Made by a program: the position numbers and the translations under genes
From: Callorhinchus milii
Taxonomy: Eukaryota
NCBI RefSeq assembly: GCF_018977255.1
Contig: NW_024704742.1
Coordinates: 106,144,001 to 106,208,000 of the forward strand
Direction: 5' to 3'
Length of the DNA: 64,000 nucleotides
Shown: positions 1,986 to 64,000 of the stretch, piece by piece
Numbering within the stretch: position 1 is the stretch's first letter
Layout: each line of letters starts with the position of its first letter
Notes under the pieces: model-generated
Told to the model about the DNA's origin: nothing
Databases searched by the model: none
The model's input: only the letters and a program-made list of their open reading frames with translations

Positions 1986-4168
1986 TGAACATTGTACTGA
2001 TACTCTGTTGAGGCTGACAAATGAAGAGTGAGCACTTGGAGGATGCATGAAATGGCCAGTGACACTTACGCAATCATCAATTTGTGTTAGAAATGGTACT
2101 GATAGAGCAACACAATTGTAAGTGGGTAAAGAACAGGGAGAAAGATTGTAGAAATGTGAACACGTACTAATAGTTCAAAGTAAGCAAAGAAAGAGTGGCC
2201 AGAGTTCACAAATGATAAAAAATGCAGATCTTAGAATATCAAGAAAAACATCTAGAGATAGAGTTATGAATGCTTGTAATAATCTACCATGCAAGGAAAT
2301 AAAGGGAAAACATTTGGATTATTCAAAACATAATGAGATGTCATCATGGGAGTTAATACTGACATTTCAGTGGGCTGAAATGCTTTTACTCATCCTGACT
2401 TCTATGTTGTCACAAGGTGTGACCCTCGGGAAAGAAAATCAGCAGAAAAACTGGAGGAGGAAAAAACTCAATGTATTTAAAATGTGTACTTGACTCATCC
2501 AGGCTAATACATAATACAACAAAACAAAGAGGAAGATTAATCTAAAAAATTGGATTGACATATATTCCTAGTTGTCATACACTGTCCTGACAGTAGAAGA
2601 GAATTGTGGAATGACATAGTACAACAGCTTTAAAATACATATTGGAATTTTAATTAACCTATGCACTGGAGAAGGAGTAGCATATCATGTTTTTAATATA
2701 ACAAAGACTGTTACATCATTAATCACCATCACCACGTTTTTTATTTCATAGACATAGAAAAGGTTCTCTGACGGTGATTTAAGGGAGGGAAATTGATAAA
2801 TGTATTGGTTAAATGTAAATGTCAAATTAGTTGTAATCTGTTTTTAATTACATCTCTTCCGAGTGTATGATTCTCCATAAGAACTTTCTGAACTACTTTG
2901 AGCAGATTATAACCTAGAACTTATTCTCAGGTATGAACTCTTCACTATATCAGACACTGAACCCATTGATTAGATTAGAGAGTGGAAAATATGAACGTTC
3001 ATAACAGATATGATCACATTGAATCTGGTATGAAACGTCACAATGTTCACCCTTACCCCATAACTCATGCCTGGCTGTCCATTATTACTTCATAATTTAA
3101 TTGCAAAATAGATCTAGAAAGATTGTTTTTCAGAGTTGAACATATTTGTCAAGGTGTAATAAAAAGTCGAAATGATTTTCTCTGAAAACCAGGAGACAAT
3201 GTTTTCTTTTCTTCCTGTTGGCTCGAGGAAACTTGGTGACTCTTGACGTTCAACTGGGTTCATCTAAAATATGTCTTCCACAAGACAGTATAGGTCACTT
3301 GGTAATTCTGTTACTCTGCTTGTTACAGAAAAGAAGATAAATTATCAGTCTCACTTTCTGTAAGCTGAGGACTGTCAGGACCAAATGACAATTTGTCATA
3401 CTTAGCCTCACTGTGAAATACCAGGTAATCTCTATGGACAAGTAGACTGTACAGGCACTTGTCAAGTCAAATCTATTCAATACTGTATCTCTCTTAATAC
3501 TTAATGAAAATTAACACCATTTTCATCTTAAAATATCTTTGATGCAATACCTATCACACATATATATTATTAATGATCAGGGGAATAGAACACACAGACC
3601 TTTTGATGTTCATGATAACAAATTTTAAGAAGCTCTAAGCTCTCTGTTGAGTTATTCTGGTAGTTATCTAGTACTTAAACAAAATAACAAAAAAATTCAT
3701 ATGTAGGAAAGCAATTAAAACATATCTACTATCCACTACTCACTATAACCGCTCAATCATCATAAGGTGTTAAGATTGTTGTATTCTTATTTTTGAGAAT
3801 CTGCAAAGTGAGGATAGTGCTTTCTCTGGAGTGAGTTTAAAATTAAATAGCTCCCCTAAGGAATTTATCAAAAGGTAATCTGAGCCTAAATGAATATTTG
3901 TACATTAAAACATACAAAATTATAATTAAAATCTTTCATCTTCATTGTAGTCTCTCTCACGTACATCTATAAAATGTTTATTTCAATACTGTGCACAGAG
4001 CCGAGTGCACTTAGATCATAATCACTAATGGTGAACTGTTCGATGCTCCAATATGCTTTGTCACTGGGTATTTGGACACAATAGTGCGCTCCACACGGCA
4101 TGTTTCCTGAGCATGTCTGTGCAAACTGGAAAGAGCCAAGCTCTTTCTTTCCAAGGAAACAACAAAAA

Positions 4169-4416
4169 CTCCAGGAATATCCCAACACACACTGTGAGGT
4201 CCCCAAGCCTTGGCTCTTGCCAACTTGTGCCTAATACTTTCTGGAATTAGGTAAGCAGGATTCATCCCTCCAGGGAGAGAATGGGCATTTCATTCCAACA
4301 ATCTATCTCTGGAGTTTCCATGTGTAGGTGGGAATGCCTGGAATTCTAAATAGGGTTTGGATACACTTAAGCATGGTGATGGGCATGTGTCAGACACTCA
4401 GCTGACCAAAAAAAAA
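4169..4416 (+). mobile_element. Unclassified structured A-tailed retroposon ('family X'), 5'-truncated copy
   Basis: Aligns by eye to 42235-42803 and 32804-33244; ends gcatggtgatggg...gtcagacactcagctgacc followed by an A-run. Confidence 0.85.
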
Positions 4417-5910: not shown

Positions 5911-6055
5911 TTTTTGGGGGGTCAGCCAGGGGTCTGATGCATGCGGAACCCATGCTTAAAGTATCCAAACCAAACTAAGAATTCGATGCATCCCACCTAC
6001 ACATGGAAATTCCAGAGATAAATTGTTGGAATGGAATGTGTACTCTCTCCCTGCA
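5911..6055 (-). mobile_element. Family X 3' fragment
   Basis: ttttt...ggtcagccaggggtctga...catgcttaaagtatccaaacc...catcccacctacacatggaaattccagaga is the reverse complement of the family 3' end. Confidence 0.8.
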
Positions 6056-6302
6056 AAAATTTAAAAACACAACACAAGTCTGAATTAATCTGAAATTGCC
6101 ATGATTTCTGTGTGGAATCTCTGCAACACAGCTTGGACTACTCTATGTAGAGCTTTCAGCCTGAAGAAAGGTAATGAACCTGAAGAATGAGCTCTCACCA
6201 TCTAGTGATGGCTCAACAGTGCTTGTCAGGTGTCATATGACTATCCTCCTGGCATAGTCATTTTAAGAACTATCCTCCTGGGGGGAGTGGGGAAGGGGGG
6301 AA

Positions 6303-6811
6303 GGGGGAAGGTGAGCTAAACTGGCTCCAAGGTGACAGACTTAGCAATAGAGTGTTGGAATCGATTCTGTGGCCTTCTTGATAGTCTGATTCCCGAGCCA
6401 GGCAGGTCTGCCATATTCCAGAGCACTGCTGATAACGCATCAGTCAGCCTGGCTCATTGGCAGGACTTGGAGGGGAAGACCAGTCCCTGGAAGCAAGAAT
6501 TTCTTTCAACTCAGCTCCCCCTAACCTTGCAAGCCAAACCCTCATGGGTAAGAACCAGACAGTGCTCTCAATACAAGCAGTACTCCAATATGCAACCTTT
6601 GGTTCCCGAACATTGTATCTTGCCAACGTGTGTCTAATACTCTCCAAAATTAGGTAAGCGCAGTGTGTCCCTTCAGAGAGAAAATGCACATTCCATTCCA
6701 GATGCAGGAAAATGTATATGTGTATAGGCAGGATACATTTGTGGATTGGATTCTCTTAAGCATGGTGATAGGTTTCAACTTATGTGAGACACTTGGCTGA
6801 TCAGAAGAAAA
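6303..6811 (+). mobile_element. Family X near-full-length copy
   Basis: ggggaaggtgag...ggctccaaggtgac...gagccaggcaggtctgc...ctgctgata...cttaagcatggtgatagg...ggctgatc plus A-rich end. Confidence 0.8.
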
Positions 6812-6858
6812 GTGGTCTTTCACTGAAGATTTTATAGCTGAGTTTTTTGAGTTTTCTA

Positions 6859-7763: not shown

Positions 7764-7784
7764 TAAAAAGCAGGTATTGTTTCC

Positions 7785-10529: not shown

Positions 10530-10835
10530 AACAACAACAACAACAGCAACATTTGTGCAGCGCCTTTCACGTTGGGAGGACGTCCCAAGGCGTTGGACAG
10601 AGTGCAGCATTTCAGACCTGAGCTGGGGTCAGGGTGGGCAAGGGAGGGGAGGGGGTGTGGCCGATGGCATGGTCAAAGAGGAGGGTTTTGAGGTGGGACT
10701 TGAAGGAGGCTAAGGAGGAGGCGAGGTGGAGTGACTGGGGGATGGAATTCCAGAGGTTGGGGGCAAAGTGGCTGAAGGCTCTCCTGCCAATGGTGGGGCA
10801 GGTGGGTTGGGGGATGTGGAACAGGCTAGAGAGAG
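10530..10835 (-). mobile_element. L2 LINE 3' end
   Basis: (aac)n atttgtgcagcgcctttcacgttgggaggacgtcccaaggcg...ggtcaaagaggagggttttgagg. Confidence 0.92.
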
Positions 10836-11290
10836 GGAAACATGTGAGAGATGTTAAGATAGGGACTCCGCAGGTATATGTCCACAGAATACAAATATCA
10901 GAGAAGCAAGTGGAGCTTCATGCACTTGTGTCCTCACCCAAGAAACAGATTGCAGCTGGATCTCAGCGCACTCCCTTCTGAGGGTGCCTCACTGTTCCTT
11001 CCTCTCTTCCTTCCTCTTTTGACCTCAGCCCTACAGTGTTAAGTGCTTCACCATGTGGTGTCACATCATTTGCCTTTCTCTCTCAGCTGCCTTCATCCGT
11101 CTTGTGGTATGATGTTATAGTGCTTGATGCAATGCTGGACTTACATTATGCTGAGCCAGGGGCTTTTTATGAGGAGGAGGAATTCATCTCCATTGTTTCC
11201 CTCAGTTTCCTCCTCTTCTTCCTCCTCATGGCTCTCCTCTACTGAAGGATGATCGCGGTGATGTCCAGCACAAACATGTCACTCATGCTT
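10836..11290 (-). mobile_element. Possible decayed Harbinger-type transposase 5' region
   Basis: Minus strand reads RRAMRRKKRRKLR, later YSVDIYLRSPYLNISHM, loosely like the HARBI1-type N-terminus; many stops, no DDE core seen. Confidence 0.3.
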
Positions 11291-12134
11291 GCTGCTGTTG
11301 CTTGACTGCTGTTTGGGCTTTGTTCGCCACCGGAGGAGCAGACAGCAGTGAGGACACAGGAAGCAATAAATGACAAGCATGTGTGCAAGGTTCATTACCA
11401 AAGCATATGTTCCCTATTGAACTTCATAAAGCAGACCGGAAAACAGCATGCATTTGATGAGTTAAAACTCCATGCTCAAGATGATCAGAGTGCTTGGTGA
11501 TGGCAGGTTTCCTCCACACAGCCCAAACTGCTGGCAGGGTGAAGAAAAGAGGCACAAGAAGTGCCACTATAGGCCCTCACCTGTGCCCATAAATGTCCTG
11601 TTCTCTACAATCTTCCTCAGAAAACAAAACATGCATGTTCATAAGTTTCAGTTTTGTGATGGCCTCCATTTCTGTGATGACATGCGATGGGGGTCTGGGT
11701 TTATTTCAAAGTGGTACCATCTACTGCATCATGTTGTGTTGATTGTAACTTTGCATTCATCTCCATCTCTTCAAAGAGCCTTCTCAACAACTTGATCGGT
11801 AGAGCCAAAATTGACCAGGAGCATTACCTGGTACCAGGCCATGGCCCCTAGATGATGCCAGGTAATTGTGCCACAATTCCAAATAGATTGTGGCAGAAGA
11901 CCATTACACATTCTGTGCTGATGCACATAGCCACAGCCACCTTGGTCTCTCTCGCTCATCCTCCTTGATCTACCAAGGTAGCTTCTAATTATCTAAAGTG
12001 CTGCTATTAGTATGAGTGCTGGAAGCATCCACAGAATAACACTCACAAGTTCTTTGTGTTAGTGTTTAGATGATAAAGATTTCTGCCACCATCATCCAGA
12101 TTCCTTTATAGCAATTATGTCTGTATATTTGTTG

Positions 12135-12310
12135 TTCAGATGAGATATTAAACCAAGGTCCTGGCTACCTGTTTGATACAATTCTGAAAGAATAGTGTCC
12201 TGGCCAACAATCTCCTAGATACAATTGGTCATTCATCTCATGGTTTGTAGGACACAAGCAAGGCAAGTGTGAAAATTGGCTTCTATGTTTGCTTACAAAT
12301 AGAGTTACTA
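12135..12310 (+). mobile_element. Degenerate Deu-SINE core fragment
   Basis: cagatgagatattaaaccaaggtcc...gtgtcctggccaacaat...ttggtcattcatctc...aattggct. Confidence 0.65.
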
Positions 12311-12468
12311 ACTTTATAGAAAATCTCTTTGTTGAGACAATTTCCTGACTTGTGGGAATAATACTGGGTATTAGATTCCCAAATCAATCAATGAATCGAT
12401 CAATCAATCCACTATTTGAACATTTATTAGAACAAGCAATCCTCTGCAAAACACGATATAAAACTTTA

Positions 12469-12535
12469 CAACAACAACAACAAAATTACATATGTATAGC
12501 ACCTTTCACGTCGGGAGGACGTCCCAAGGCACTGG
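12469..12535 (-). mobile_element. L2 3' tail (~65 bp)
   Basis: (caa)n...atagcacctttcacgtcgggaggacgtcccaaggcactg. Confidence 0.85.
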
Positions 12536-12868
12536 AATCAAATGCAAGGAATATTCTTATCATCACAATGGAATTCTGACCCCAGTGTTCCTTAATGGTT
12601 GCAGTGAATAAGGTACAAAGGAGATAATTATTCATTAAAAACCTTCAACATTATTTAGCATACACTGTCCTCCGAAGCCTTGCTTTCTCAGTTCACACCC
12701 TCTCCGAACACTTCACTCTGTCAATCACCTGGTTGAGTCCACCTTTCAAAAAATACAAATTGCATCCATGAAGGAATGAATGTCTTTAATCACATTATGT
12801 TCCCATATTTGAAATGCTGGTCTCACGTGCTTTGATGCTAACCCTGCATAGAATTAATTATCCTTCTT

Positions 12869-13415
12869 GGAGGGGAGGTAAGTGGCATATTCTCCTGGCT
12901 CCAAGGTGACATGTCTTACAACAGAATATCAGAATCGAGCCAGCCTATCTGTGGCGATCTCGGTAGTCCGGTTCCTAAGCTAGGCAGGTTTGCAATATTC
13001 CAGGGCACTGCTGATGAGAGCACTTGGCTCATCAGCAGGAGTTGGAAGAGCAGACCAGTCACTGGGTCAGGGAAACCTGCTACTGTTAACCCTGCAACCC
13101 AAAGCCCTAACAGGTAATGTAATCCTAGCTGGACAAGCAACAACAACAACAACAACAACTTACATTTGTATAGCGCCTTTCACATCAGGAGGACAAAGCA
13201 GCAGGAAAGCCAACCTGAGTCTGATGTTTTCTGGAATTAGATAAGATGGGTGCGTCCCTCCAGGAGGAGACTGCGCATTGCATTCAAACAATCTATCTCT
13301 GGAATTTCCATTTGGAAGTGGGATGCATGGAAATCTCAGTTTGGTTTGGATTCTCTGAAGCATGGTGATGGGTTTCCACATGTGTAAGACATTCAGCTGA
13401 CCAAAAAACAACAAA
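12869..13415 (+). mobile_element. Family X near-full-length copy, interrupted by an antisense L2 tail (13138-13195)
   Basis: ggggaggtaag...cctggctccaaggtgac...ctgctgatgag-9nt-ctcatcagcag...gcatggtgatgggtttcc...cagctgaccaaaaaa; the insert is flanked by aagca on both sides. Confidence 0.85.
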
Positions 13416-13479
13416 GTTTTAACTGTTTACTTGCATTAAATTGTTAATGTCTCTTAAAACCTTCATCAATGTGTCAGAT

Positions 13480-13930
13480 GTCAATCTGGCTCAGTTGGCA
13501 GCATTCCTACCTCTGAGATAGAAGGCTGTGGGCTCAAACTCCAAGTTGAGCTTTTGAACTAATATTAAATAGGCTAACATTTGAATGCACTGCTGAGTGG
13601 TCCTGCATGGTGGAGATGCCATCTTTTGGAGGTCATGTGTGCCTGCTCAGGTGAATGGTAACGATCCCACGGCAACATTTGTAAAAGAGAAGGGAGTTTC
13701 TCCCGGTGTATTGGCCAAGAATACTCCGGGTAGATTTGGTCATTTATTTCATAACTGTTTATGGAACATTACTGTGGGTAAATTGGTTGCCAGATTTCAC
13801 CAACAAAATACACAGTCACTACACCTTACAGTATATCCTGTGAAGTGCTTTGGGATATAATCCTTTCAATTGCATTTGAGTGATGTCATCCTGATTTGAA
13901 AGTTGCAGTATCAAATGCGAGGATTATTTA
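13480..13930 (+). mobile_element. Older tRNA-headed Deu-SINE (SacSINE1/AmnSINE1-like body)
   Basis: Head gtcaatctggctcagttggcagca...gaaggctgtgggctcaa; Deu core gtttatggaacattactgtgggtaaattggttgcc; tail tatcaaatgcgaggattatt. Confidence 0.75.
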
Positions 13931-14065
13931 TCTAGTTCTCCAGAATGGGTTATTTACTCAGTTAAGTACTGTGACAACCTATTATTTCTCATCGGTGGAA
14001 TTTCAAGATGTCTTGGATTTCTTTCTCTCAATTTTTCTCATTTTTATCTCACCATTGTCCTTTGG

Positions 14066-14770
14066 TACCGCCTTCCACCACCTCCGGAATGTCGCCAGAC
14101 TACGGCACTACCTCACCCCTCACGCTGCTGAAACTCTGGTCCACACCTTTATCACCTCAATGCTGGACTATGGGAACTCTCCTCGCCGGCCTTCCCGGCA
14201 CCTCCCTCCACAAGCTGCAGGTCATCCAGAACTCTGCAGCTCGTGAACTGTCCCGCACCAGGCTTCGCGACCACATCACTCCCACCCTCGCTCGCCTCCA
14301 CTGGCTCCCCATCCCCCAGAGGATTGATTTCAAGATCCTCATCCTCACCTACAAGGCCATTCACGGCCTCGCTCCCTCCTACCTCTCCAACCTACTATCC
14401 CCCTACCTACCTGCCCGTACCCTCTGTTCTTCTGGCTCCGGTCTGCTCCACATCCCCCGCCCCAACCACCCTACCATCGGTGGCCGGGTCTTCAGCCTCT
14501 CAGCCCTGAGGCTCTGGAACTCTATCCCCCAGTGCCTTCGCCGCTTCCTCCCTTTCCTCCTTCAAGGTCGGTCTCAAGACCTTTCTTTTTGACCGTGCCT
14601 TCAGCTCCCCTCTCGACTCTCTACCCCCTCCTCGCTCCCTCCCTTCCCTCCCCTCACCCTGACCATTTCCCCCCCAATGCTCGGGTCCTGACCCAACTGT
14701 ACAGCGCCTCGGGACGTCCTCCCGAAGTGAAAGGCGCTCTATAAATGGAATCTTGTTGTTGTTGTTGTTT
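14066..14770 (+). mobile_element. L2 LINE 3' fragment (relatively young)
   Basis: TAFHHLRNVARLR...LHKLQVIQNSAARELSRTRLRDHITPTLARLHWLPIPQRIDFKILILTYKAIHGLAPSYLS; CpGs retained; (gtt)n tail. Confidence 0.97.
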
Positions 14771-15029
14771 TCTTCAGCACAAACATGTACGATTGGTCTC
14801 AGCATTCAACTCTCTTGAAGTATGAGTTTGTCCTAAAATGTATTTCTGTTTTGTTTTGAAGCGTAGAATCAACCCAGATTAAAATTGAACAGATTAAGAT
14901 GTTTGTCCACCTCCTTTTACTGGATGATTAACTCCCGAATTGCAAAGTTATTAATCACAGATTCTATTCTTTACCTTGCTATCCCTTTGTGATTGGCTTA
15001 TTGTGGTGTTTGCTGCTCACAGATACGAT

Positions 15030-15540
15030 GTGGCTCATCTTGAGTCCAGTGCTTCGAATGTTGATTTCTTGCACGTTTGACCAGCACTAAGAAGGTATTT
15101 GGGGTCATGCTTGGATCTGTCACTGCCTGCTGCTCCAGGTGAGAGGAGGTATAGCCCAAGACGATTTGTGATTTTAATCCCTCAACCACATCTGCAAATC
15201 ACAGGCAGCTGGCAACTGTCAAAATGATGTATGACACGTGTTTAGCAGTTCATTCAATCTCTGTCTGACTTGTCTAAAGATATGGGTCTCATATTGTATT
15301 ATTTGGCCTAAAATAACCTCTGTGGTTTTTCATGACTCTGTTATAGACATTTGCCTTGCCTGTTCCGGGTAGGATATCAAATATGTACTGGAGCTCTTCG
15401 TCAGTACTGAATAACACCAAAGGACACTTTCTCATCTTCTTTATTGTGTCTGGAACAGAAAATCCTAAAACTTGCAAATCTACTTTCTTGAATATTAGCC
15501 TTTCTCATTAATGTAATAAACAAAATGCTTTTGGTGAAAT
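15030..15540 (-). mobile_element. Ty3/Gypsy gag relic
   Basis: RKCPLVLFSTDEELQYIFDILPGTG...YFRPNN, then frameshifted YETHIFRQVRQ...ACD and EGLKSQIVLGYTSSHLEQQAVTDPSMT; follows the metazoan Gypsy gag pattern (LLLH..GEE.Q.IFDTLP...YF.P...YER..FRQ..Q...IKSQI..G..S..LR). Confidence 0.75.
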
Positions 15541-15914
15541 TGAATACTCAGGTATATTGTCTTCTTCAACTATGTGCTTCGATTTCACACCCTCACCAAT
15601 GAACATCAATTGTTTCCATCTATAACAAGACGTGGAATGGATGAGTGCAAGTGTATCAAAGTGCTATTATGGAAATATGGTCCATGCCATGTCTGGTGGG
15701 TTTGCTTTTTAACTTTATTAAAAACTCAGACTGTATTGTCTGAAACACTAGCTTCCACCAAATTAAACTGCCACATTACTGACAGTGGGAACCTGCTCAG
15801 GATGGCCCAAGGTTTGGAAGAATAATCCTTACATTTGATATAAGTCTTTTCACTTCAGGAGGACATCTCCAAGCACTTCACAGATTTACTACAAGGTGTA
15901 ATTCACCAAGAAAT

Positions 15915-16010
15915 ATGCAGTCAATTCACTTTACAGTATATTCTGTGAAGCACTTTGAGACGTCTCAAAGACGTGATAAGGCGCTATATCAAATGCAAAG
16001 ATTATTATTT
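15915..16010 (+). mobile_element. Deu-SINE 3' tail
   Basis: cagtcaattcactttacagtatattctgtgaagcactttgagacgtctc...gcgctatatcaaatgc. Confidence 0.85.
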
Positions 16011-16380
16011 ATAATAATAATAAAAATAATACTTGCATTTGATATTGCTCTTTTCACGTCTTCTAGATGTCTCAAAGCACTTCACAGAAGATGCTGTAGA
16101 ATTAATTGACTGTATATTTGTGGGCAAAACGTGGCAACCACTTGTGCACAGCAGTGTCCCTCAACAATCGTGGATTGAGTAACCAAATTATTATTTTTTT
16201 TTTGAGGGTATTATTATCCCTGAAAAAGTGATCGATCAATCGACGAACAACTGGGTTCCTACTTACTGCTAGGTAAACAGAGACATGTGGTATAAGGAAA
16301 CTTGCCTAAAATTTCATCCTGCTGGGAATAGAACTCAGGTCTCTCGATTGCTAGGCGAGTGTTCTAACCACTGAGCTATT
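16011..16380 (-). mobile_element. tRNA-derived Deu-SINE, long subtype
   Basis: Reversed tail, Deu core, ggttcctacttactgctaggtaaacagag segment and head ...ctaaccactgagcta. Confidence 0.88.
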
Positions 16381-16904
16381 AGGGTAGATATCACGACTTG
16401 CTGTGTCGCTCTGAAGAATTCAATTATCGTGCTTAGTCTCAAAGGCAATGTGGGACACTAAGGGTATTTCCCATTTTTATTAAGCTTTTTCAAAGGTGCT
16501 ACACGTAATGCTGAATGGAATTTCTATCCCATGGAAGGGGAAACAGTTTGTGGTATGTGTTGCGATAATTATCAATGGTGATACTTATCACAAGGACAGA
16601 ATATCTAATCATTTTGTCTTGTACTTAATGAAACATCTGGGTATGAATCCCCTCACCCCATCCCCAACTTCTGGAAAATGTTGTTTTCCCCCTGAATTCC
16701 AATCAGAACTTAATCCTTTTTTATTTAACTGCAATGGATTTGGTCTTATTATTATAATAACTATGTATTTCATAGGGAAATGCGACAGACAGTAGTATAT
16801 AGGAAATTGTTGTGAAGGCAAAGGTTTTCAACCCTTTTCACATCATTTGAATTTCTCATTTCTTTTGGGAAGGGAAGATCTAAGTTATCCTTAAACAGTT
16901 ATCA

Positions 16905-17393
16905 TTCAAAACTCTGCTGCCTGCATACTGACCTGGACCAAACTCCAGACACACATCTCACCAGTTCTGGCCAGGCTCCACTGGCTCCCCATCACCGAAT
17001 GATCCACTTCAAGATCTTCACTCTCGGGTTCAAATCCATTCACTCTTTGGCACCTCCCTACCTCTCTGACCTCCTCACTCCCCAATCCACCACCTGACAC
17101 CTTCGCTTGACTGGCACTGGCCTCCTGCTCATCCCTCGCATCTACTACTCCATCATTGGAGGTCGTGCTTTCAGCCACTACGTCCCAAAACTCTGGAACA
17201 CTCTCCCACAATCCTTCCGCCTTGCCCCCTTTCTCCCCTCTTTCAAGACCAACCTGAAAACTTTCCTCTTCGACTGTGCTTACAGCCAATTCCCCACTCT
17301 CCTTGGCTCGGAGTCAGACTCCGCCACTGTTAAGCACTCTGAGACGCTATCCTGTGTGGAGGGTGCTATTAGAAATGCAAGTTGTTGTTGTTT
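16905..17393 (+). mobile_element. L2 LINE 3' fragment
   Basis: QNSAA.ILT..K...[13 protein letters not shown]...GGRAFSHYVPKLWNTLPQS...FKTNLKTFLFD; (gtt)n tail. Confidence 0.95.
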
Positions 17394-18055: not shown

Positions 18056-20001
18056 TAAAAAAAAACAGCAACAACAACAATGTCCTGGCAGCCCCTGGCA
18101 CTGCCATCCCGGCCATGACCTGGGAGGCTGAGCCTGAGGGCTGATGCCGTCCCACTGATAGCTTGCACCCGATCTCTGCATGCGTGTTTTGGCTGCCACC
18201 CTGACCCGAGCCTCCCCCTCCACTCCAAATGTTTCTCCTCCCACTCCCTCTATGTCTCTCCTCCCATCCCCCTCTATGTCTCTTCTTCTACCCCTCTCTA
18301 TCCACTACTCTCCCTCTGTCCTTCTCTCCTACCACCCTCCCTGCCTTCTCTCTCTGCTCGACCCATCACCACTTCCCTCTGCTCCAGCCTGGGCATCCTC
18401 TGCATCATGACTCCTGGCACTGGCTGGCCCACAGCAGCAACACCAAGTATCCAATCATTCACTCCCTCCACTCCGAAAGGGAAACCCAACACCCCTTCCC
18501 TCATACGTACCCTCCCCAACTCTCCACTCACACCATTCTCCACAACCATCTCTCCTATACAACCCAAAATCCTCTCTGCACCACTCTCTCCTTCCTTCCC
18601 ACCCTGAAGCAAATGCACCCGCATTTCTAACCTGCCCTTTCTCTCAAAAGTTCTAGAATGTATTGTTGCAAACCAACTTTGAGGACACCTCTCCTCCCAC
18701 TCCGTCTTCGAACCCCTCCATCCAAACAAACAACATCCTCTCTATCTGTGACCAGGGCTCCCCCTGCCTCCTTGTCCTCCTGGACCTCTCCACTACGTTC
18801 GACACAGTCGATCACGCCATCTTCCTCCATCGCCTTTCCTCCGTCATCCACCTCAGTGGGACCGCACTCGCCTGGTTCGAGTCCTACCTCACAAACTGCC
18901 AGCAGTACATCTGCATCAATGGCTTCTCCTCCCGCTCTCACCCGGTCACCTGTGGGGTACCCCAAGGATCCATCCTTGGCTCCCTCCTCTTTCTGATTTA
19001 CATGCTTCCTCTTGGGGATGTCATCCGCAGACATGGGGTACCTTTCCACATGAATGCAGATGACACCAACTCTATTTTTCCTCCTCTCTTTGCGACCCCC
19101 AGTCCCCTGATGTTCTGTCAGCCTGCCTGTCAGATCTCAGGGGCTGGATGAGTGCAAACTTCCTTCAGCTGAACGTTGACAAGACGGAAGCCATACTCTT
19201 CGGTTCTTGTCAACGTCTAAAATCTCATGGTTCTCACCTCCTCCACCTACCTGACCTCCCCCTAAAACTCTCCGAACCCGTACGCAATCTAGGCATCCGG
19301 TTCGACCCCAATTATCCTTCCTCCCCCACAATCGGTCCCTCACCAGCACCGCTTTCTTCCACCTTCATCGTATCGCCCGTCTCCGCCAATACGTCTCCCC
19401 AAAAGCCGCTGAAACTCTGGTCCATACCTTTGTCACCTCTTGGCTGGACTACTCAAATGCCCTCATCGCCTGTCTCCCATCCACTATCATCCATAAAATC
19501 CAACTCAATAAGAACTCTGCCGCCTGCATTCTCACCCGCACGAAACCCGCTCCCCGATCACCCCAGTCCTTGCCAGACTGCACTGGCTGCCTATCCCAGA
19601 GAGGATCGATTTCAAGATCTTCACCCCCGTATTCAAGTCCCTACACTCCTCTGCACCCCCCTACCTCTCTGACCTCTTCTCTCCTCAGCACAGTACCTGT
19701 CGCCTTCGTTCCTCTGGGTCTGGCCTCCTCCTTGTCCCCCGAGTCCTCCGCTCCACCCTCGGCGGCCGTGCCTTCAGCCACTATGCCCTGAGACTCTGGA
19801 ACTGCCTTCCTCACTCCCCTCGTCCCGCTCCCTCCCTTCCTATTTTCAGGTCTCTGCTGAAGACCTTTCTTTTCGACCGCGCCTTTGGTCACCTTCCCAC
19901 CCCTCCCCCTGGCTCGGCCCCGGGATCCTAAACTGTAAAGCGCTCTGAGACGCCGTCCAGTGTGGAGGGTGCTATATAAATGTAAGTTGTTGTTGTTGTT
20001 G
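18056..20001 (+). mobile_element. Internally deleted L2 LINE with RT domain (pseudogenised)
   Basis: ISNLPFLSKVLE; ORF 18663-19151 LLVLLDLSTTFDTVDHAIFLHRL...WFESYLT...GVPQGSILGSLLFLIYMLPLG...MNADDT; LQLNVDKTEAI; (gtt)n tail to 20001; several frameshifts. Confidence 0.95.
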
Positions 20002-20539: not shown

Positions 20540-21105
20540 AAAACAACAAGATCTTTCATTTATATAGCACCCTTCACGCAGGGTAGCATCCCGGAGCGCT
20601 TGACAGTGGTGGAGTCTGACACCAAGCCAGGGGGAGAGGGAGGAGGTGACCCTAAGCATGATAAAAAAATGGTCTTTAGGTGGGATTTGAAAGTAAGGAA
20701 GGAAGAGGCAAGGCAGAGGGATTGAGAGAGAGTGTTCTAGAGTTTCGGGATGTAGGCACTGCCACTGACGGTGGAACAGAGGGGACGACGGACAAACAGG
20801 AGACCGGAGCCAGCTGAGCGGAGGCAGCGGGTGGTGGAGTGGGGGGGGAAGCAGATTGGATAGGTAGGGAGGTGCGAGGGTATGAAAGGATTTGAAAACG
20901 AGTGAGAGGATCTTGAAATCGGTCCGTATGGTAATTGGGTGCCAGTGGAGCCTGGCAAGGACTGGTATGCTGGGGATACGGAGTTTTGTGCCAGTGAATT
21001 TCTGGTTGATGGAATTTTGAATTAATTGAATTTTGTGGATGGTGGAGCTGGGGAGACCAGCGAGGAGGGCATTGGAATAGTCCAGCCGGGAAGTAACGAA
21101 TGGCA
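20540..21105 (-). mobile_element. L2 LINE 3' fragment
   Basis: ORF 20513-21106(-) [17 protein letters not shown]...[16 protein letters not shown]...LAPPYLS. Confidence 0.95.
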
Positions 21106-25915: not shown

Positions 25916-26337
25916 TTGTGTTTCTGGACTTTAAACAAGACGCTAGAGAAATTTTGAGGTAAACAAGGAGATATGTCTTTAGAAGAATTTTGAAAATATG
26001 AAGAGAGGAAGCAAGTCAAAGTGATTTGGGATGAAATTTCCAGAAAACTGGAATATAAAAAAAATTGAGTATTAAATTGATCATCCACTTAATGGCTATT
26101 GTGGTACATTACTCTGTTCAAATTAGCTGATGGTTTCATCTACACAGTACAAATCAATCATTACACTTTATGGTAAGTCCTGTGATGCACTTTGAGGTAT
26201 TTCAGCATGTTAAGGGATTATTATGTATAGTGTTTGAATAAATTGGGCTCTGATGGTAGAGTGCAAGGAATGAGATATGAGCAGTAAACCAGTGCCAGAA
26301 GGGCAGAAAGTGCTAGCTGGGATGTACTGATGCCGAT

Positions 26338-26705
26338 TTTTTTGGGTCAGTTGCAGAAATTCATTACTATGCTAAAGAGTCTCCAAACCAAACTACTGAG
26401 AGTTCCACATGCACATGGAAATGTCCATTTGTATGGAATGGAGTGCGCACACTCTCCCTGCAACAATGGATGTTGGTCACTTAATCCTGGAATATTTAGG
26501 CACAGGTTTGAAAGAACTGAGGCTAAGAGACCCTAGAAGGCAAATTAAGGTGCTACTGGAATGTAACTGACTAAAACCCCATAGCTTGCCATTGTAAGCA
26601 CTGGCAGGAAAGCTTCCCACTACTTATCCAGCTAGGACCCTAAGCTTTGGCTTGCAGGGTTAACAGAAGTCAAGTGAAAAGAGTCCCAGCCCCCAGTGAC
26701 TAAAC
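26338..26705 (-). mobile_element. Family X copy
   Basis: tttttgggtcag...acatggaaat...catagcttgccattg...ccagctaggaccc...ttggcttgcagggttaa...ccccagtgact. Confidence 0.75.
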
Positions 26706-31870: not shown

Positions 31871-32803
31871 AATAAGTTGTAGACAAGGAATACAATAAGG
31901 AATATTTTGTAATTTACCCTTACGTTAATTGGAGGTATAGTTGGCAAATCTGCCATGGTCTGTCATGATCCAAAGAACCCCCACGTTATTGTAATAAGCG
32001 GGACTAGAACAGTTAAACTAACATCCAACAGAAAAGAAATTAAACAAATGTGCTTTCAAAGGAGTAAACACGAGTATATACATCTGAAGAAATAGTAAAT
32101 GTTTTGCAAATTCAGTGAGGTAGAATAGAAAATTGATTCGGCTTCGAATAAATAATTTCACAATTTAAAATAAAATGAGAAATGGCAGGTAATATAAGGG
32201 AACCACCTGCCCTGGTCACAACATTCAAATCTGCTTGATGTTTTGTGGAGGAGATAGAGTGGATGGACCTTTGTGTTCTCGAGCCAATTTTGCTCAGTGT
32301 AACATGATTTATAATTAGGCCTCAGTTAATTAGTCTCCTTAATCTCATATTATGCCACAGCTGCTTGTTTGTTATTATTCATTCCCAGGCAGAGTTAAAA
32401 TTAAAACAGATTTTTACAAAAACCATTTAACAAAGGTTAGTGCCTTACGGGAACAGCATCAAAGATTAGTACTGAATTATATCAGAATATACACATTTTA
32501 GCGACAGGTTGCAAAACAAATTCTATAGTTAATTTGTGACCTGAAATATTAATACTTTAGTGCTTCTGAGGTAAGATTAATTACAGTTGCTTTCAGAAAA
32601 CAGCAATTACTATGTTGTACAGTATAGTGCAGCTCAGTTTGTAAATTGAATTACTCAAAAACATTTATGAATGAATTTATTTAAATGTTCCTGGGATCGG
32701 CATCAAAATAGAATCTAGTTATTCCAAATAGTCTTTAGCTCAGTATTGGTCAGATGTACGATGAGCAAAATGATCTGAATCTTTTCCCTTTGTTAGAGGA
32801 ACG

Positions 32804-33244
32804 CAGTATTCCAGGGGGGCACTGCTGATGACAACACAGTCAGTCTGGCTCATAGGTAGGACCTGGAAGGGCAGAATAGTCACTAGGGGCAGGGAGTCAT
32901 CCCACTCAGCTTCTATTAACCCTGTAAGCCAAAGTCCTAATGGGTAGGATGGACCTAGCTGGACAAGCAGTAGGAAAGCTCGTCAGACAGCAATATCAAT
33001 GGCAAGCTATGCGGTTTTAGCTGGTTAGGCTCCAGCAGTACCCCAACACACAATCTGGGGTCCCCAAGGCTTGGTTCTTACCAACTTAAGCCTAATACTC
33101 TTCGGAATTAAATAAGAAAGATGTTTCCCTCAAGGAATTACAATGTGTAGTTGGGATTCTTTGAAATCTCAGGTTGGTTTGAATACTCTTAAACATGGTG
33201 ATGGGTTTCCGTATGTGTCAGACATCCGGCTGACCAAAAAAAAA
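32804..33244 (+). mobile_element. Family X copy (5' ~100 bp missing)
   Basis: cagtattccagg...cactgctgatgac...gcaatatcaatggcaagctatg...catggtgatgggtttccgtatgtgtcagacatccggctgacc followed by an A-run. Confidence 0.88.
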
Positions 33245-33619: not shown

Positions 33620-33943
33620 ATAATAATAATAATAATCCTTGCATTTGATATAGCGCTTTTCACGTCGGGAGGACGTCCCAAAGCGCTTCACAGAACACAC
33701 TGTAAAGTGAATTGACTGTATATTTGTGGGCGAACGCGGCAGCCAATTGCGCACAGCAATGTCCCACAAACAGTCGTAGATTGAAAATGACCAATTTAAT
33801 TATTTTTTNGGTTTTTTGGAGGGATTATTATTAGGCGTGTGGAGTAAGGAAACTTGCCCAAGGTTTCGCCCTCTGCCTGGAATTGAACTCAGGTCTCTCA
33901 CTTGCAAAGCGAGTGCTCTAACCACTGAGCTACAGGACTCCAC
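33620..33943 (-). mobile_element. Young tRNA-derived Deu-SINE, short subtype, full length
   Basis: Minus strand gtggagtcctgtagctcagtggttagagcactcgcttTGCaagtgaga...gagttcaattcc (A and B boxes, Ala-like anticodon loop), Deu core, L2-like tail, (tta)n. Confidence 0.95.
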
Positions 33944-34274
33944 GTGTTGTACAACACATATAGGCTTTGAGATACAGGGTCAGCCCAATGTGACAGAGTT
34001 TCCTTTCTGCAATATAGAAACAATCAGAATGATCATTAACGGTACTTTGGAAAGGTTTAACAGCATTTAATGCTGTTTAAGAATGGAAGAGTATGTATTA
34101 ATGTATGTATAATTAAACTACAGGAGTGAAATTCCATTTGGAAATAAAATAAGCTGTGATTGTAAGAGGAGACTGCAATGAAGATTTATTTATTTAGAGA
34201 GATGTATTCAGACACACAGAATATGGTATAAGATGTTCTCTTCCATCCAAAAAAGGAAGTGTTTCAGCCCCATA

Positions 34275-37350: not shown

Positions 37351-37685
37351 CGGAGTCCTGTAGCTCAGTGGTTAGAGAGAGCACTTGCCTTGCAAACGAG
37401 AGACATGGGTTCGATTCCCAAAAGGGCGAAACTTTGGGCAAGTTTTCTTACACCACGCACCTCTGTTTACCTAGCAGTAAGTCGCAACCCAGTTCCGGGG
37501 GTAATACTTTATTAAAAAAAAATTGGTCACTCAATCCACGACTGTTTGTGGGACACTGCTGTGTGCAATTGTCTGCTGTGTTTCACCACAAAATATACAG
37601 TCAATTCACTTTATAGTATATTCTGTGAAGTGCTTTGATTCGTCTCGATATAGTACCTTTCATGTCATGGGGATGTCTCAACATG
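37351..37685 (+). mobile_element. tRNA-derived Deu-SINE, long subtype
   Basis: ggagtcctgtagctcagtggttagag...ggttcgattcc...cctctgtttacctagcagtaagt...ctgtttgtgggacactgctgtgtgcaattg. Confidence 0.92.
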
Positions 37686-42234: not shown

Positions 42235-42803
42235 TTTTGTTTTGGTCAGCTGGGTGTCTGACACGCGTGGAAATCCATCACCATGCTTAAGAGTATCCAA
42301 ACTAAGATGAGAATTCCATGCATCCCACCTACATTTGATTGACGGAATGAAATGCGCATTCTCTCTCTTGGAGGGATGCATCCTGCTTACCTAATTCCAG
42401 AAAGTATTAGGCACAGGTTGGCAAGTGCCAAAGCTTGGAGACCCCAGTGTGTGTATTGGGATATTGCTGGAGGCTAACCAGCTAAAATCTCATAGCTTGC
42501 CATTGATATTGCTTTCTGGCAAGCTTTTCCACTGCTTCATCAGCTAGGACCACCCTACAACTCTACTCAGGGTTAACTGGTGTTGAGTGGGATGACTCCC
42601 TGGCGCTGTGACTGGTCTGTACTTCCAGGTCCTGCTGATGTGCCAGCCTGGCTGTGCTGTCATCAGCAGTGTCCTGGAATACTGTGGATCCGCCTGGCTC
42701 AGGAGCCATACGACTGAGACCACCACGGAGGGCTGACTCGATTCCAACATTCCATTGTCTCCTTGGAGCAAGCTCACTCTAAGGAAAACCTGCTTACCTT
42801 CCC
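42235..42803 (-). mobile_element. Family X, best-preserved full-length copy (~570 bp)
   Basis: Minus strand runs from gggaaggtaagc...gctccaaggagac through the hairpin region to gcatggtgatggatttccacgcgtgtcagacacccagctgaccaaaacaaaa. Confidence 0.88.
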
Positions 42804-43796
42804 ATCTGACAAGCGTGGGCTTGAGCCCTCGCTACATGGATGGTAGGTACAAGCAAGCTTCCTGGTGGGCAACACATTTCAGCATGAAATGCGTGAGAGC
42901 ATTGCTACCATCTTCCTGTCCACAGCTCAGCCATACACCCCTTCCCATTGAGGCATGGTTCCACCAATTGGAGGTGTGGAGTTCAAGCATCAGTTGCTTG
43001 CCTCTCATAATTTACAGTGGAAACATGTCGGAGCTATCCCACTATAAACAGTAAAGGTCTGGTAACATGACTACACATGGGCTTGACATTGTTAGCAAAA
43101 CCAGAAACTATGGAATGTCTCATTCCCCAAAAAGTTCTCCATATCAGTATGGAGGATAAGGTGGGTACTTGTACATACAAGTCAGGTGAGAGCTAGACTG
43201 CAGGCAAGGACTTCTGTCTCATCTACTGTAAAGACAAAATACTTCTGAAGGTCTGTGTCTGTTTTACGCAAGAATCCCAGATTGAAATGCTTCTTGTTAC
43301 TATATAATTCTTGGACAAGAATGACTGTCAAATATGCTTTTATTTGTTTTACTGCTGCAGGTTTGCACTCAACACTGAATAAAGTTCACTGGAATGAATT
43401 CTAACCCCTTTGGGGATCTCTTGCTTTGTATAGTACATATGTCTTGACATTTGTCCTCAATTTTAGTGAGCTAATCCAGGAGAAGATGTTAAATAAGATC
43501 ATATCTTCTTTACTTTCTGCTTTCATAGCTAGGTTACACATTTCAGATCCAGAATCTCTGCTACTGCACATAATCTACTTCTTTTCTTCTGAAGTTTAGA
43601 TTCAGAGAGATGTGGCTGAATAATCTATAGATTTGAACATAAAGTATATGAATAGATGATGTAAGTAAGATTCATATATAGTGAGTATGAGCTCTCTGAG
43701 AGCTATCCTAACGTGAAGGACTACATAATAATAATAATAATCCTTCATTTGATATAGCACTTTTCACATCTTCTCGATGTCTCAAAGCACTTCACA

Positions 43797-44655
43797 TGTT
43801 AGAATTTATACTTTTTGTATAATGTTAGAATCATAATAGATGTTGCGAACGGGTTAACTTTTAAGCTAAGTGTGGGGAGCAACTGGACTGACACTCATGA
43901 TTAACACTCAAGAGCAACAAAAGGTAACCCTCAAGCATAGCAGCTAACGAGCAAGTTGCTTAAACTAGAGGACCTTGGTACCATCCCAGGATACTGATAA
44001 GAAATAACCAGTCACTTAAAAGGAATGTACTAATGATCACACCTAACAAAATAACAAGCATCAGATAATAGGGGTCTTAAGGACAATGTGTATGTGTGCT
44101 GAGGCACGTACATCCCATGAAGTGTTCACGTGAACCCAGCATGATTTCGACCAGGTGTTCTAACGTCCGCACCATGATTGAACGAACATCGGTATAAGAG
44201 TTCCGATAACTTTGTATACTGGGCCGTCCCGGGTCGCGGAGATAAGGGTACGGGAGATGGGGCCATCCCGGGTCACGGAGACAAGGGTACGGGAGATGGG
44301 GCCATCCCGGGCTGCGGAAACAAGGGTACGGGAGATGGGGCCGTCCCGGACTGCGGAGACAAGGGTACGGGAGATGGAAGACTGAGAGCTAGAAACACTA
44401 AGACTGAGGATATCAGATGGAAGATTGAAAGCTGTAAGCAAGAAGACTGAAAGCAGGAAGAATCAAGCTTGTGTGCTGTAAAGGCACAGTGTTGTACTCG
44501 AGATATCTACGGTGGTATTGTTCTGTTATAAGATCTGTTGATTGTACCGGCCTTTGGTCTGACCCATCGGGATATTGGGGAATAACGAACGAATAATAAT
44601 AAAATAGTCTGATATCTGGCTGCAAACGGATTATGGCTGATTTTATTTTCTAACA
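43797..44655 (+). mobile_element. Solo LTR, 859 bp (Gypsy or ERV1-like)
   Basis: Ends TGTTAGAA...TTCTAACA, 4-bp TSD CACA/CATA, TATA-like tataag ~44193, aataaa ~44598; orientation inferred from these signals. Confidence 0.88.
44221..44376 (+). repeat. Four 39-bp CpG-rich tandem repeats inside the LTR
   Basis: Unit gggccRtcccggg...cggagacaagggtacgggagatg starting at 44221, 44260, 44299 and 44338. Confidence 0.97.
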
Positions 44656-45011: not shown

Positions 45012-45095
45012 TTTTTGCTCAGCTTACACACGCGGAAACCATTTACCAGACTGAGAGTCCCACACATTTATGCCACCTACACATGGAAATTTCCT
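45012..45095 (-). mobile_element. Family X 3' remnant
   Basis: tttttgctcagct...cgcggaaacc...ccacctacacatggaaattt. Confidence 0.55.
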
Positions 45096-54848: not shown

Positions 54849-55218
54849 GTGGAGTCCTGTAGCTTAGTGGTTAGAGTATTTGCGTCGCAAGCGAGAAACC
54901 TGGGTTCTATTCTCGGCAGGGTGAAATGTTGGGCAAGTTTCCTTACTCCACACACTTCTGTTTACCTAGCAGTAAGTAGGAACCCGATTGTTAGTGGATT
55001 GGCGAATAACTTTTTGGGGGTAATAATTCCTTCAAAAAAAATTAAAAACAAAAAAAATTGATCCCTCAATCTACAACTGTTTGTGGGACACTGCTGTGTG
55101 CAATTTGCATTTCGCCTACAAAATACACAGTTAATTCACTTTGCAGTATATTCTCTGAAGTGCTTTGAGACATCTCAAAGACGGGATAAGGTCCTATATC
55201 AAATGCAAGGATTATTAT
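54849..55218 (+). mobile_element. tRNA-derived Deu-SINE, long subtype
   Basis: gtggagtcctgtagcttagtggttagag...ctgtttacctagcagtaagtaggaaccc...tatatcaaatgcaaggattatta. Confidence 0.93.
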
Positions 55219-55377: not shown

Positions 55378-55670
55378 TTAATAATAATCCTTGCATTTGA
55401 TATAGCGCTTTTCACGTCGGGAGGACGTCCCAAAGCGCTTCACAGAATATACTGTAAGGTGAATTGACTGTATATTTGTGGGCGAACGCGGCAGCCAATT
55501 GCGCACAGCAATGTCCTACAAACAGTCATAGATTGAAAATGACCAATTTATTATTGTTGTTGTTTTTTTTTGGAGGGATTACTATTAGGCGTGTGGAGTA
55601 AGGAAACTTGCCCAAGGTTTCGCCCTGCTTGGAATTGAACACAGGTCTCTCGCTTGCAAAGCGAGTGCTT
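55378..55670 (-). mobile_element. Young Deu-SINE, short subtype (lacks the first ~25 nt)
   Basis: Near-identical to 33620-33918 and 63420-63720. Confidence 0.95.
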
Positions 55671-57632: not shown

Positions 57633-58490
57633 ATAATAATAACAGTAATAAAAATACTTGCATTTGTTATAGCGCCTTAACGTGTGGTCGAAACGTCTCA
57701 AAGCGCTTTACAGAATATACTGTAAAGTGAATTGTATATTTTGTGGGTGAAAAGCGGCAGCCAATTGTACACAGCAGTGTCCCATAAGTAGTCGTGGATT
57801 GAGTAACCAATTTATTATTATTTTTTTGATAAATTATTAGAATACATTAGAATATACAGCACGGAAACAGGCCATTCGGCCCAACTGGTCTATGCCGGTA
57901 TTTATGCTCCACGTGAGTCTCCTCCTGCCCTTCCTCAACTAAACCTTCAAGCATAACTTTGTATTCCTTTCTCCCTCATGTACCTATCTAGCTTCCCCTT
58001 AAATATATATATGTGCTATTTACCTCAACAACTCCTCGTGGTAACATGTTCCACATTCCCACTACTCTCTGTGTGAAGACATTTCTTCCCTATTTGATCT
58101 ATTTGTGACTATTTTATATTAATGGTTCATGGTTTTGGTCTCCCCCACAAGTGGAAACACCTTCCCTATGTCTACCCTATCAAAGCCTTTCATCATTTTA
58201 AAGACCTCTATCAGGTCACCCCTTATCCTCATCTTTTCAAGAGAAAAGAGTCCAAGCATGTTCCGCCTTTCCTGATACGTATAACCTCTCAGTTCTGGGA
58301 TCATCCTTGTGAATCTTATTACCCCCAGAAAAGCGATCTGCCAATCAACTAACAACTGGGTTCCTACTTAACTGCTAGTAAACAGAGACGTGTAGAGTAA
58401 GGAAATTTGCCCAACATTTTGCCCTGCCGGGAATCAAACCCAGGTCTCTCGTTTGCGAGGCGAGTGCTTTAACCACTGAGCTACAGCACT
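57633..58490 (-). mobile_element. Long-subtype Deu-SINE split by a CR1 insertion
   Basis: Tail and core at 57633-57837; resumes at ~58316 ttattacccccag...ggttcctactta...accactgagctacagcactc. Confidence 0.88.
57838..58315 (-). mobile_element. CR1 3' fragment nested in a SINE
   Basis: ORF 58119-58355(-) RFTRMIPELRGYTYQERRNMLGLFSLEKMRIRGDLIEVFKMMKGFDRVD; ttatta at both junctions. Confidence 0.93.
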
Positions 58491-60740: not shown

Positions 60741-62075
60741 TGTCTCAGTTACACTCAGTTTATACTCTACAGTAAAGTGTGCGACTCAGTTTTCTTCCAT
60801 AAGGTTACATCAATATTTCCAATGGGATGCTCTAGCTGTTGATGTAACCAACCAACGAACAGCTAGAAAGGGAGAACTGGAGTATCTTGCATCTTTAGGA
60901 GCAGAATCCATACTGCTGTCCAGCTATAAAGTGAGTGCTCAGAGGTTTCATCAGAAGTCAAATGAAGAACACTGTCGCAAAAATTGCCAGTTATTTAGTG
61001 TTCAATTTTCATGACATTTTGCTCCAAGATTTGAGATAAGTGTATCATCTATAAACCCTCAATCTAGCACCATGTGTTATTTTCCTGTCACTTTTCTCCA
61101 TCTTTTCTTACTTTGAAATATACTGAAAGGTCTGAGTACTGTTATTTCAATTCCATCAGGTGGCCCTTGCCAGATTTTAACTTAATGAGTACATTTAATT
61201 TTGAGCCTTTTAACAAATATGTGGAGCACTCTCCTTCTGATCCTCTATAAGTGATTGAGGATAGCAGGCAAAGGGGTTCAAAGAAACACTTGTTAAAGTT
61301 ATTGTTTGCATGACTTTTACCTATGCTTAGATGTTCTCTTGAGCTGCAAACCATGTTGAAAATCAAGACTTAGATCAGACATTCTCAAAGTAGATAAGAA
61401 ATATTTTATTCATTGTGGGATTTTGAGAACAGAATTTTCATTGACAGGCACAAAAATTGCTGAATATTTCCTCCTTGTTGAATTCATGTTTTACATTACA
61501 AAATAATTGGATGTTTATTTTGCCAGATTCAGTGTGAACAGAGCAGAATATGAAGATAAACTGTTTGGAATTGTTTCAATGCCTAAAAAAGGAATATATG
61601 GCTTCCTGAAATATTTTTTTTCACACTATGACAAGGATATTTATAAGTTGGGGCTGTTGATCTTTGTCACTAGCCACCATACTGGATGGATCATGGGCAT
61701 GACTCCAGCTATCATATCACTGGCAGTCAAATTGCAAATGTTAATTTGATTAATTTTCAAGTACTCTAAAACTACCTTGTGTGAAAGGTGCTATATAAAT
61801 GCAAGTTGTTGTTAGTGGTGGTGCCAGGGATTCAGAATTCTTACCTGTAAGGAAAACCATAGCTGACAAAACTTTTATTCCACCAAAATGTACATTCACA
61901 CTTGTGAGCAGAATAAACAGAATAATAGCTACCTGGAATCCTATTGAGGTTGCCAGTTGATGCTGTAATTCAGGGGAAGCAGAGCTCTTGTAATTTATAA
62001 CTTTTATTTGAGCCTGAGACAGATCACTATGTTGAAATCACTTCCAGATTTTGTTTATAATCAATGATATTTTTC

Positions 62076-62185
62076 TTTGCGGCTGTTGCGGAAACCCATC
62101 ATCGTTGCTTAAGAGTATCCAAACCAAGCTTGGAATTCTATGCATCCTACCTACACGTGGAAATTCCAGAGATGGATTGTTGAAT
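62076..62185 (-). mobile_element. Family X 3' fragment
   Basis: gcggaaacccatcatc...gcttaagagtatccaaacc...catcctacctacacgtggaaattccagagatggattgttg. Confidence 0.75.
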
Positions 62186-63368: not shown

Positions 63369-63419
63369 CTATCAGGGCTGTCCCTTATCTTCTACTCGAA
63401 AATGTATATGATTCAATTA

Positions 63420-63744
63420 ATAACAATAATAATCCTTGCATTTGATATAGCGCTTTTCACATCGGGAGGACGTCCCAAAGCGCTTCACAGAACACACTGT
63501 AAAGTGAATTGACTGTATATTTGTATATTTGTGGGCGAACGGGCAGCCAATTGCGCACAGCAACGTCCCACAAACAGTCGTGGATTGAGAATGACCAATT
63601 TATTATTGTTTTGTTTTTTTGGAGGGATTATTATTAGGCGTGTGGAGTAAGGAAACTTGCCCAAGGTTTCACCCTGCCTGGAATTGAACTCAGGTCTCTC
63701 GCTTGCAAAGCGAGTGCTCTAACCACTGAGCTACAGGACTCCAC
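63420..63744 (-). mobile_element. Young Deu-SINE, short subtype, full length
   Basis: Near-identical to 33620-33943, with a small tgtatatt duplication at ~63514-63531. Confidence 0.95.
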
Positions 63745-64000
63745 GTAGTAACAGGTTTTGAAATATGAGACACTCATTAGACATATGAACATAGAATGTA
63801 CGAGACAAGAGGAATTCTTCATGAATGGAATGAGATTCATTCAGTGAAGTGCCTGTTCTTTAAACCATATTGAGGATCCCACATGTTAAATTTATTGAGT
63901 ACGTGTGCACAACATAATAACTCACAGTGCCAAAGTTTCAAATCAGTCATAAGCAAGGGTGAAAGGGTCAGTTTTTCATCCTGTCAATTGCTATAGTTGC

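Follow-up and report, generated by a model that had tools for sequence, protein, structure and literature searches.

A hairpin-rich, A-tailed repeat of the Callorhinchus milii genome is very probably the 5'-truncated 3' end of a decayed LINE

The window analysed here, a 64,000-nt stretch of Callorhinchus milii DNA (contig NW_024704742.1, positions 106,144,001 to 106,208,000), holds nine homologous copies of a hairpin-rich, A-tailed repeat. They are listed below, the longest with its parts; coordinates are window positions, and family positions are counted from a G-run, plus values lying 3' of it.

42235..43006, minus strand: longest window copy, read as a 5'-truncated LINE 3' end, from -249 to +602 (770 aligned nt; 88% of aligned bases equal the family majority)
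42555..43006, minus strand: decayed C-terminal part of the ORF, frameshifted and with deletions; family stop codon at about 42557
42874..42933, minus strand: CCHC zinc-finger remnant, in translation W.SCG...THFMLKC with the first Cys mutated; the family reads C..C...H....C
42745..42803, minus strand: G-run (family codons LLGGEV) and the hairpin after it; zone of clustered 5' truncations
42244..42554, minus strand: 3' UTR, hairpin-rich, without AATAAA or ATTAAA; 326 nt in the family
42465..42493, minus strand: 5' arm of the UTR core, consisting of a helix strand, TTTTAG, a 5-bp stem with a 7-nt T-loop-like loop, and CA
42265..42273, minus strand: 3' arm of the UTR core (decayed here), made of TTT and the other strand of the long-range helix
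42245..42262, minus strand: terminal hairpin GTCAG-8 nt-CTGAC
42235..42243, minus strand: short A tail
4168..4416, plus strand: copy with 3' UTR only, from +349 (local alignment)
5911..6053, minus strand: copy with 3' UTR only, from +452 (local alignment)
6198..6811, plus strand: copy beginning near the G-run, at -72 by local alignment or +22 by blastn
12859..13411, plus strand: copy from -15, split by an L2-tail-type insert at about 13136-13194
26337..26701, minus strand: copy from +198 (local alignment)
32802..33244, plus strand: copy from +125, with the stop-codon hairpin kept at about 32945
45012..45090, minus strand: short, weak 3' fragment from +495, missed by blastn (score 62 versus a shuffle maximum of 29)
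62070..62182, minus strand: short fragment of the 3' end, from +477, with a decayed terminal hairpin

Using 42235-42803 as query, blastn recovered eight of the nine copies, and local alignment to the family majority recovered all nine, each outscoring 20 shuffles. A sequence-only reading had described these copies as a retroposon family of about 550 nt with a common 3' end and no conserved ORF, and had attributed it either to a non-autonomous element moved by a LINE partner or to retrocopies of a host non-coding RNA (ncRNA). Much of that description held on closer analysis. The window copies share their 3' end and differ at their 5' ends, and 31 of 48 copies from an unbiased sample end within the last 50-nt bin. 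The A tail is present but short (median 8 A within the first 10 nt, n = 47 copies), and at least four of the five pairs of the terminal GTCAG-8-CTGAC stem are kept in 33 of 47 copies. The tail is structured: the 42235 copy folds at z = -3.6 and the family-majority 3' UTR at z = -5.1. In a mismatch-tolerant test, 11 of 77 copies had target-site-duplication-like matches scoring at least 8, versus 2.0 expected, while an exact-match test was near chance (4.6 versus 4.3).

The unit is distinct from the other repeats of the window. Self-comparison of the window showed no similarity of the unit, tail included, to the local L2 or CR1 copies, as had been claimed, and an L2/CR1 identity was also rejected on differing RT motifs. 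A SINE with a tRNA, 5S or 7SL head was dismissed, since Rfam and ARAGORN gave no match on the copies, their matches in the window being confined to tRNA-like SINE heads at other places, and the 5' part of the unit is ORF sequence. A solo LTR is contradicted by the variable 5' ends, the A tail and the upstream non-LTR RT. A hammerhead look-alike (CTGATGA...GAAA) occurs only in the 42235 copy and is missing from the others; telomerase RNA and Helitron identities, weighed by eye, were abandoned when the upstream sequence showed non-LTR RT motifs.

The tRNA-Ala-like heads belong to an abundant SINE family and lie at 16314-16386, 33868-33938, 37354-37429, 54853-54924, 58419-58490 and 63669-63740; the copies at 33621-33945, 55379-55669 and 63418-63746 are 91-93% alike, as expected of CmiSINE/SacSINE-type elements. 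As described in PMC5499810, CmiSINEs and SacSINE1-CM (partner L2-2_CM) are abundant in the elephant-shark genome, of similar age to our family and equipped with tRNA-Ala heads like those in the window; they combine a tRNA head, a CORE/Deu body and an L2 tail, whereas our family has none of the three. Decayed L2-type 3' fragments with AAC/GTT tails lie at 6858-8222, 14067-14770, 16902-17392, 19124-19997 and 20541-21100. L2-type tails interrupt family copies, which makes at least some of this L2 activity younger. The window also carries a GC-rich 39-bp tandem repeat (four copies, 91% matches) at 44221-44377.

The proposed length and 5' start of the unit did not survive alignment. The 42235 copy runs on to 43006, 249 nt beyond the G-run, with about 40 nt deleted immediately upstream of it, and the three longest copies, said to begin at the G-rich sequence, start at about -249, at -72 to +22 depending on method, and at -15. 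Homology passes upstream of the proposed start in many of 30 genomic matches, and repeated searches with the upstream edge, in six overlapping steps, joined the unit to a decayed non-LTR retrotransposon. The upstream pile-up formed a scaffold of 4.64 kb, so the element measures at least 4.6 kb. Most of it lies in order within single loci (L141, L142 and L157), and locus L084 spans the RT through the A tail. From 3' to 5', first-pass candidates numbered 10,632, 2,440, 1,096, 174, 72, 16, 12 and 3, counts that are not normalised and come from queries of differing length (286-611 nt for the first six). Two to three copies were left at the farthest upstream step, and the family 5' end was beyond reach. 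A further ~630 nt upstream are common to two copies only (L322, oriented 881-1575; L327, 904-1575); Pfam found no match in the six frames of this region, which may be 5' untranslated sequence, an additional ORF or a segment captured from elsewhere.

The element is laid out as an N-terminal extension, an endonuclease, an RT and a CCHC finger. Pfam RVT_1 was matched above its cut-off by two frames of a real copy, L084 (E = 5e-10 and 9e-9). The AP endonuclease upstream of the RT was recognised from motif remnants and from blastp matches to homologues in their PF03372 region; Pfam itself did not pick up endonuclease pieces taken from single copies. An N-terminal profile matched the family (E = 7e-14), and one built from 114 homologue C-termini aligned to the scaffold through the G-run (E = 3e-10), significantly so for the family majority only and not for single window copies. 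An xLGG motif follows the finger in 103 of the 114 homologues, and the supposed G-rich start corresponds to the codons LLGGEV. In the majority of 19 long copies, a 277-codon open frame runs through LLGGEV and ends in QSPNG, resembling the Q[RS]PxG ends of relatives. Because this frame stops at +265, leaving a 326-nt UTR, 268 of the 603 nt of the unit, at its 5' side, are a coding remnant, the end of a LINE reading frame, contrary to the claim of no conserved ORF.

The unit is continuous with RT and CCHC coding remnants, and a LINE UTR was among the identities that the sequence-only reading had set against its own. We conclude that the repeats are very probably 5'-truncated, decayed 3' ends of an endonuclease-RT-CCHC LINE of at least 4.6 kb, likely extinct and likely inserted by target-primed reverse transcription from its own RNA. 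The earlier picture of a retroposed, 5'-truncated, A-tailed and structured repeat stands, and both proposed identities give way to the 3' end of the LINE itself. An origin as retrocopies of a host ncRNA (~550 nt, abundant and structured) would account for the strong predicted fold and the A tail, but the 5' half is LINE coding sequence whose homology goes on 4 kb upstream, the best 40 matches include no low-divergence master (76-80% identical apart from self) and no Rfam family matches at gathering level. Because of the upstream continuity with the LINE we regard this reading as refuted, its remaining probability being negligible.

Why, then, did a unit of about 550 nt appear? In an unbiased 658-kb sample, 10-14 of the 21 copies reaching +70 end in the next 100 nt versus 3.5 expected, an excess with p ~4e-7 for 14, although the 100-nt interval was picked afterwards and four copies are ambiguous by method or by lying at a locus edge. 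The zone contains two adjacent hairpins and the G-run (z = -3.0), a tentative link, since comparable folding is seen in other parts of the sequence. That 5' ends gather near the G-run, as had been noticed, is real, but they are spread over ~100 nt and the copies concerned are mixed with long ones. We read the clustered ends as a truncation hotspot produced by putative RT stalling.

A different explanation of the same excess is that part of the family is a non-autonomous derivative, with host promoters driving transcription of one or more truncated source copies that start near the G-run, and the parent LINE mobilising them in trans. PMC12477816 offers a precedent in the ~600-bp RTEX-N1_Ec32 of Ectocarpus, and short copies are enriched in an older subfamily marked by linked variants, which nevertheless includes a long member, L219. 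The 5' ends of 29 short copies are scattered over 21 different positions (-37 to +54), and the start zone is coding sequence without a distinct head. Short and long copies are equally diverged (8.4% versus 8.8%) and mixed in the tree, and none of 519 alignment columns separates the 29 short from the 41 long copies after correction. The tree shows slight clustering of the two length classes (16 changes versus 20.1 when shuffled; 17-20 of 500 shuffles as low), which stems partly from the older subfamily and from the way long copies were collected. On this balance we consider a derivative improbable.

Under the truncation reading, the RT would have bound the folded 326-nt 3' UTR, likely via a core common to distant relatives (below), started copying at the A tail and usually fallen off early. 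It would have done so more often ~600 nt from the end, where the GC-rich double hairpin and the G-run lie, and such drop-off would make many copies resemble a fixed-length element of 550-600 nt. The finding as given is an ordinary one, LINE debris resembling a headless SINE, and it carries the caution that a truncation hotspot can imitate a fixed-length element.

The family is abundant. Sixty stretches of 9.9 kb contained 40 copies versus none in a reversed control, the stretches being placed at round coordinates on large contigs only. Extrapolated to the 991.5-Mb genome, this gives an estimated ~67,000 fragments (Poisson range 48,000-91,000), mostly 5'-truncated, and an estimated 1.95% of bases, about 2% of the genome. 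One 24-mer of the family occurs 1,717 times in the genome and its control not at all. Long copies differ from the majority by a median of 10.7% (K2P, non-CpG, n = 19). At a crude rate of ~0.001 substitutions per site per million years, taken from PMC5499810, this places the family at roughly 100 million years. Substitution rates at codon positions 1, 2 and 3 are 0.10, 0.09 and 0.12, and the UTR core is no more conserved than the remaining sequence: the family decays neutrally. No intact or full-length copy was seen among 37 scored of 14,027 candidates; the open frames among these 37 belong to other LINEs, and the best genome matches of an outside homologue are broken family copies.

Sequencing runs under four other organism labels each placed 2,709-16,437 contigs on the stretch, nearly all of them within the element, with the greatest depth at its 3' end; none of these contigs spans the 42235 insertion locus. 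The locus pairs L002/L003, L034/L039, L100/L101 and L166/L167 are 97-99.9% identical over their whole flanks, and are either recent segmental duplications or assembly duplicates.

The nearest proteins to the family are single-ORF elements of 1,200-1,480 aa, 40-53% identical over a 133-aa piece of the RT; no relative exceeds ~55% identity. These relatives comprise P0002-P0015, P0089-P0235 and the loci L238, L352 and L354. Organisms were given for only two of 30 protein clusters looked up, the diatom Fragilaria crotonensis (KAI2500887.1) and the assembly of the nematode Acanthocheilonema viteae (VBB34653.1), and no cluster bore a vertebrate name; one further record is labelled a bacterial MAG. 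The environmental relatives share with the family an N-terminal extension, an endonuclease, an RT with QxGFRxxEEC, a CCHC finger, an xLGG...RFL C-terminus and an A tail, and three of them share the UTR core. They differ in state: the relatives are intact and low-copy in their contigs, whereas the family is dead and present in ~67,000 copies in a vertebrate.

RT trees placed the family inside a group of 60 homologous proteins and two loci, apart from 38 other environmental LINE RTs, a grouping that is partly circular because the tree proteins were picked by similarity to the family. FastTree support for the group was 0.90; in a second tree it was 0.82 with 62 rows and 0.23 when all 63 were counted. 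Of 80 loci obtained from a metagenome scan, three belonged to the family's clade. The RT-motif pattern matched five times in prokaryote assemblies, two of the matches being real elements, and not at all in viral contigs; in viral contigs the stop-region pattern gave five phage matches, all without RT, and plasmids gave no match. The two 4.7-kb contigs L352 and L354, found in bacterial bins, are whole eukaryote-type LINEs with frames of ~1,300 codons and are likely mis-binned; L354 ends in an A tail. The phage contigs L317, L318, L320 and L321 carry an identical 23-mer that fits the stop-region hairpin pattern with no RT nearby, probably by chance.

The genome also holds a resident RTE-type LINE family on small contigs (L337, L339, L340, L342 and L345-L347), with near-identical copies and open frames of ~380-1,065 codons, which is either young or an assembly contaminant. 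The RTE-type label is taken from its motifs, with L337, L342, L346 and L347 as reference loci. Like our family this is an AP-endonuclease LINE, and it belongs to a wider group adjoining the family's clade in the RT tree. It nevertheless forms a separate branch, with 24% identity in the RT alignment, another motif after QxGF and open frames, and the same trees place the family RT apart from it.

RTEX, RTETP and Deceiver/Inkcap are candidate clade names for the lineage (background in PMC12477816, PMC5753468, PMC4427930, PMC2806351, PMC9004415, PMC4350176 and PMC13343379). According to PMC12477816, RTEX-1_Ec32 and RTEX-2_Ec32 of Ectocarpus have, like the family's relatives, a single EN-RT ORF in 5.5-5.9 kb and, like the family, abundant short 3'-related copies; they end in C runs and target C-rich sites, whereas the family has an A tail, a comparison made by description only. 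The homologues have one ORF each, and the family shares their N-terminal part, its own 5' end lying beyond the sequence reached.

The family is possibly already catalogued. We give somewhat less than even chances to its being a catalogued vertebrate LINE (RTEX/RTE-X, or an unclassified Repbase or Dfam entry) that was vertically inherited in an unremarkable lineage. RTEX relics are known in vertebrates, as PMC5753468 and PMC9004415 report, the curated Ectocarpus RTEX-1/2 carry a single EN-RT ORF each (PMC12477816), and repeat finders would hardly have overlooked a family that fills 2% of a genome. Against this stand the C-run ends of those Ectocarpus elements (PMC12477816) and the 30 protein clusters lacking a vertebrate name, although animal transposable-element proteins are scarce in such collections and the absence is weak evidence. 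A literature search, in which subscription papers were thinly covered, returned no description of the family, its clade or its UTR core.

The UTR core is common to the family and the three intact relatives L238, L352 and L354, and has three parts. The first is a stop-region hairpin with a 4-bp stem, whose arms have changed yet remain paired in the four sequences. The second, likewise present in all four, runs TTTTAG, then a 5-bp stem capped by a T-loop-like loop of 7 nt, then CA; the inner arms of this stem covary (CTGG/CCAG, TGAG/CTCA, TGGG/CCCA and TCGG/CCGA). The third is a long-range helix whose 3' strand follows TTT near the tail, with 6, 5, 5 and 4 of 6 pairs formed. In an ENE-type triple helix, a U-rich internal loop between two helices binds the A tail; here, UUUU and UUU strands flank one long-range helix in the four sequences, with no inner helix evident. 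The core descriptors were drawn from these same four sequences, so that their presence there is circular; elsewhere they found no match in 275 kb of other LINE loci or in 3.9 Mb of shuffles, and the stop-hairpin descriptor made one chance match in the window. The AT-rich relatives L237 and L239 have neither the stop hairpin nor the UTR core.

Two reading frames of the stop-region motif are compatible with the terminal peptides of the homologues (14 of 83 in each, versus background counts of 11 and 27 of 773 windows), and this two-frame fit suggests that the constraint on the stop region acts at the RNA level. PMC3747384 describes the 3' UTRs of stringent LINEs as needed for retroposition. We infer that the core may serve as an RT-recognition element, with the U-rich junction binding the A tail.

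One Rfam family resembles this core. RF00524, the R2 3' UTR, aligns to L352 at 25.7 bits, below its gathering score of 38, and it does so through exactly the core parts; the order of its consensus, helix-UUUUAG-stem(UAGG..AAU)-CA ... GAAGAUUU-helix, is that of the family core. RF00524 had no match in L354, L238 or five family-copy searches, and at E-value level Rfam otherwise gave chance matches only on four family loci and two relatives. R2 has a restriction-like endonuclease and inserts into 28S rDNA; the family differs in having an AP endonuclease and dispersed insertions.

Horizontal transfer is possible. In its fullest form, this account has an ancient transfer into the chimaera lineage from a LINE lineage known mainly in microbial eukaryotes, expansion to 2% of the genome, and a UTR core (long-range helix, U-rich junction and T-loop arm) that shares its ancestral RT-recognition element with the R2 3' UTR; we regard this combination as unlikely, at about one chance in five.

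As it stands, a LINE lineage without a vertebrate relative among the proteins looked up makes up about 2% of a cartilaginous-fish genome. Its UTR core covaries across elements ~45% identical in the RT and resembles the R2 3' UTR, which makes it a small candidate RNA element for RT recognition. Descent shared with R2, if true, would link the AP-endonuclease and the restriction-like-endonuclease retrotransposons.
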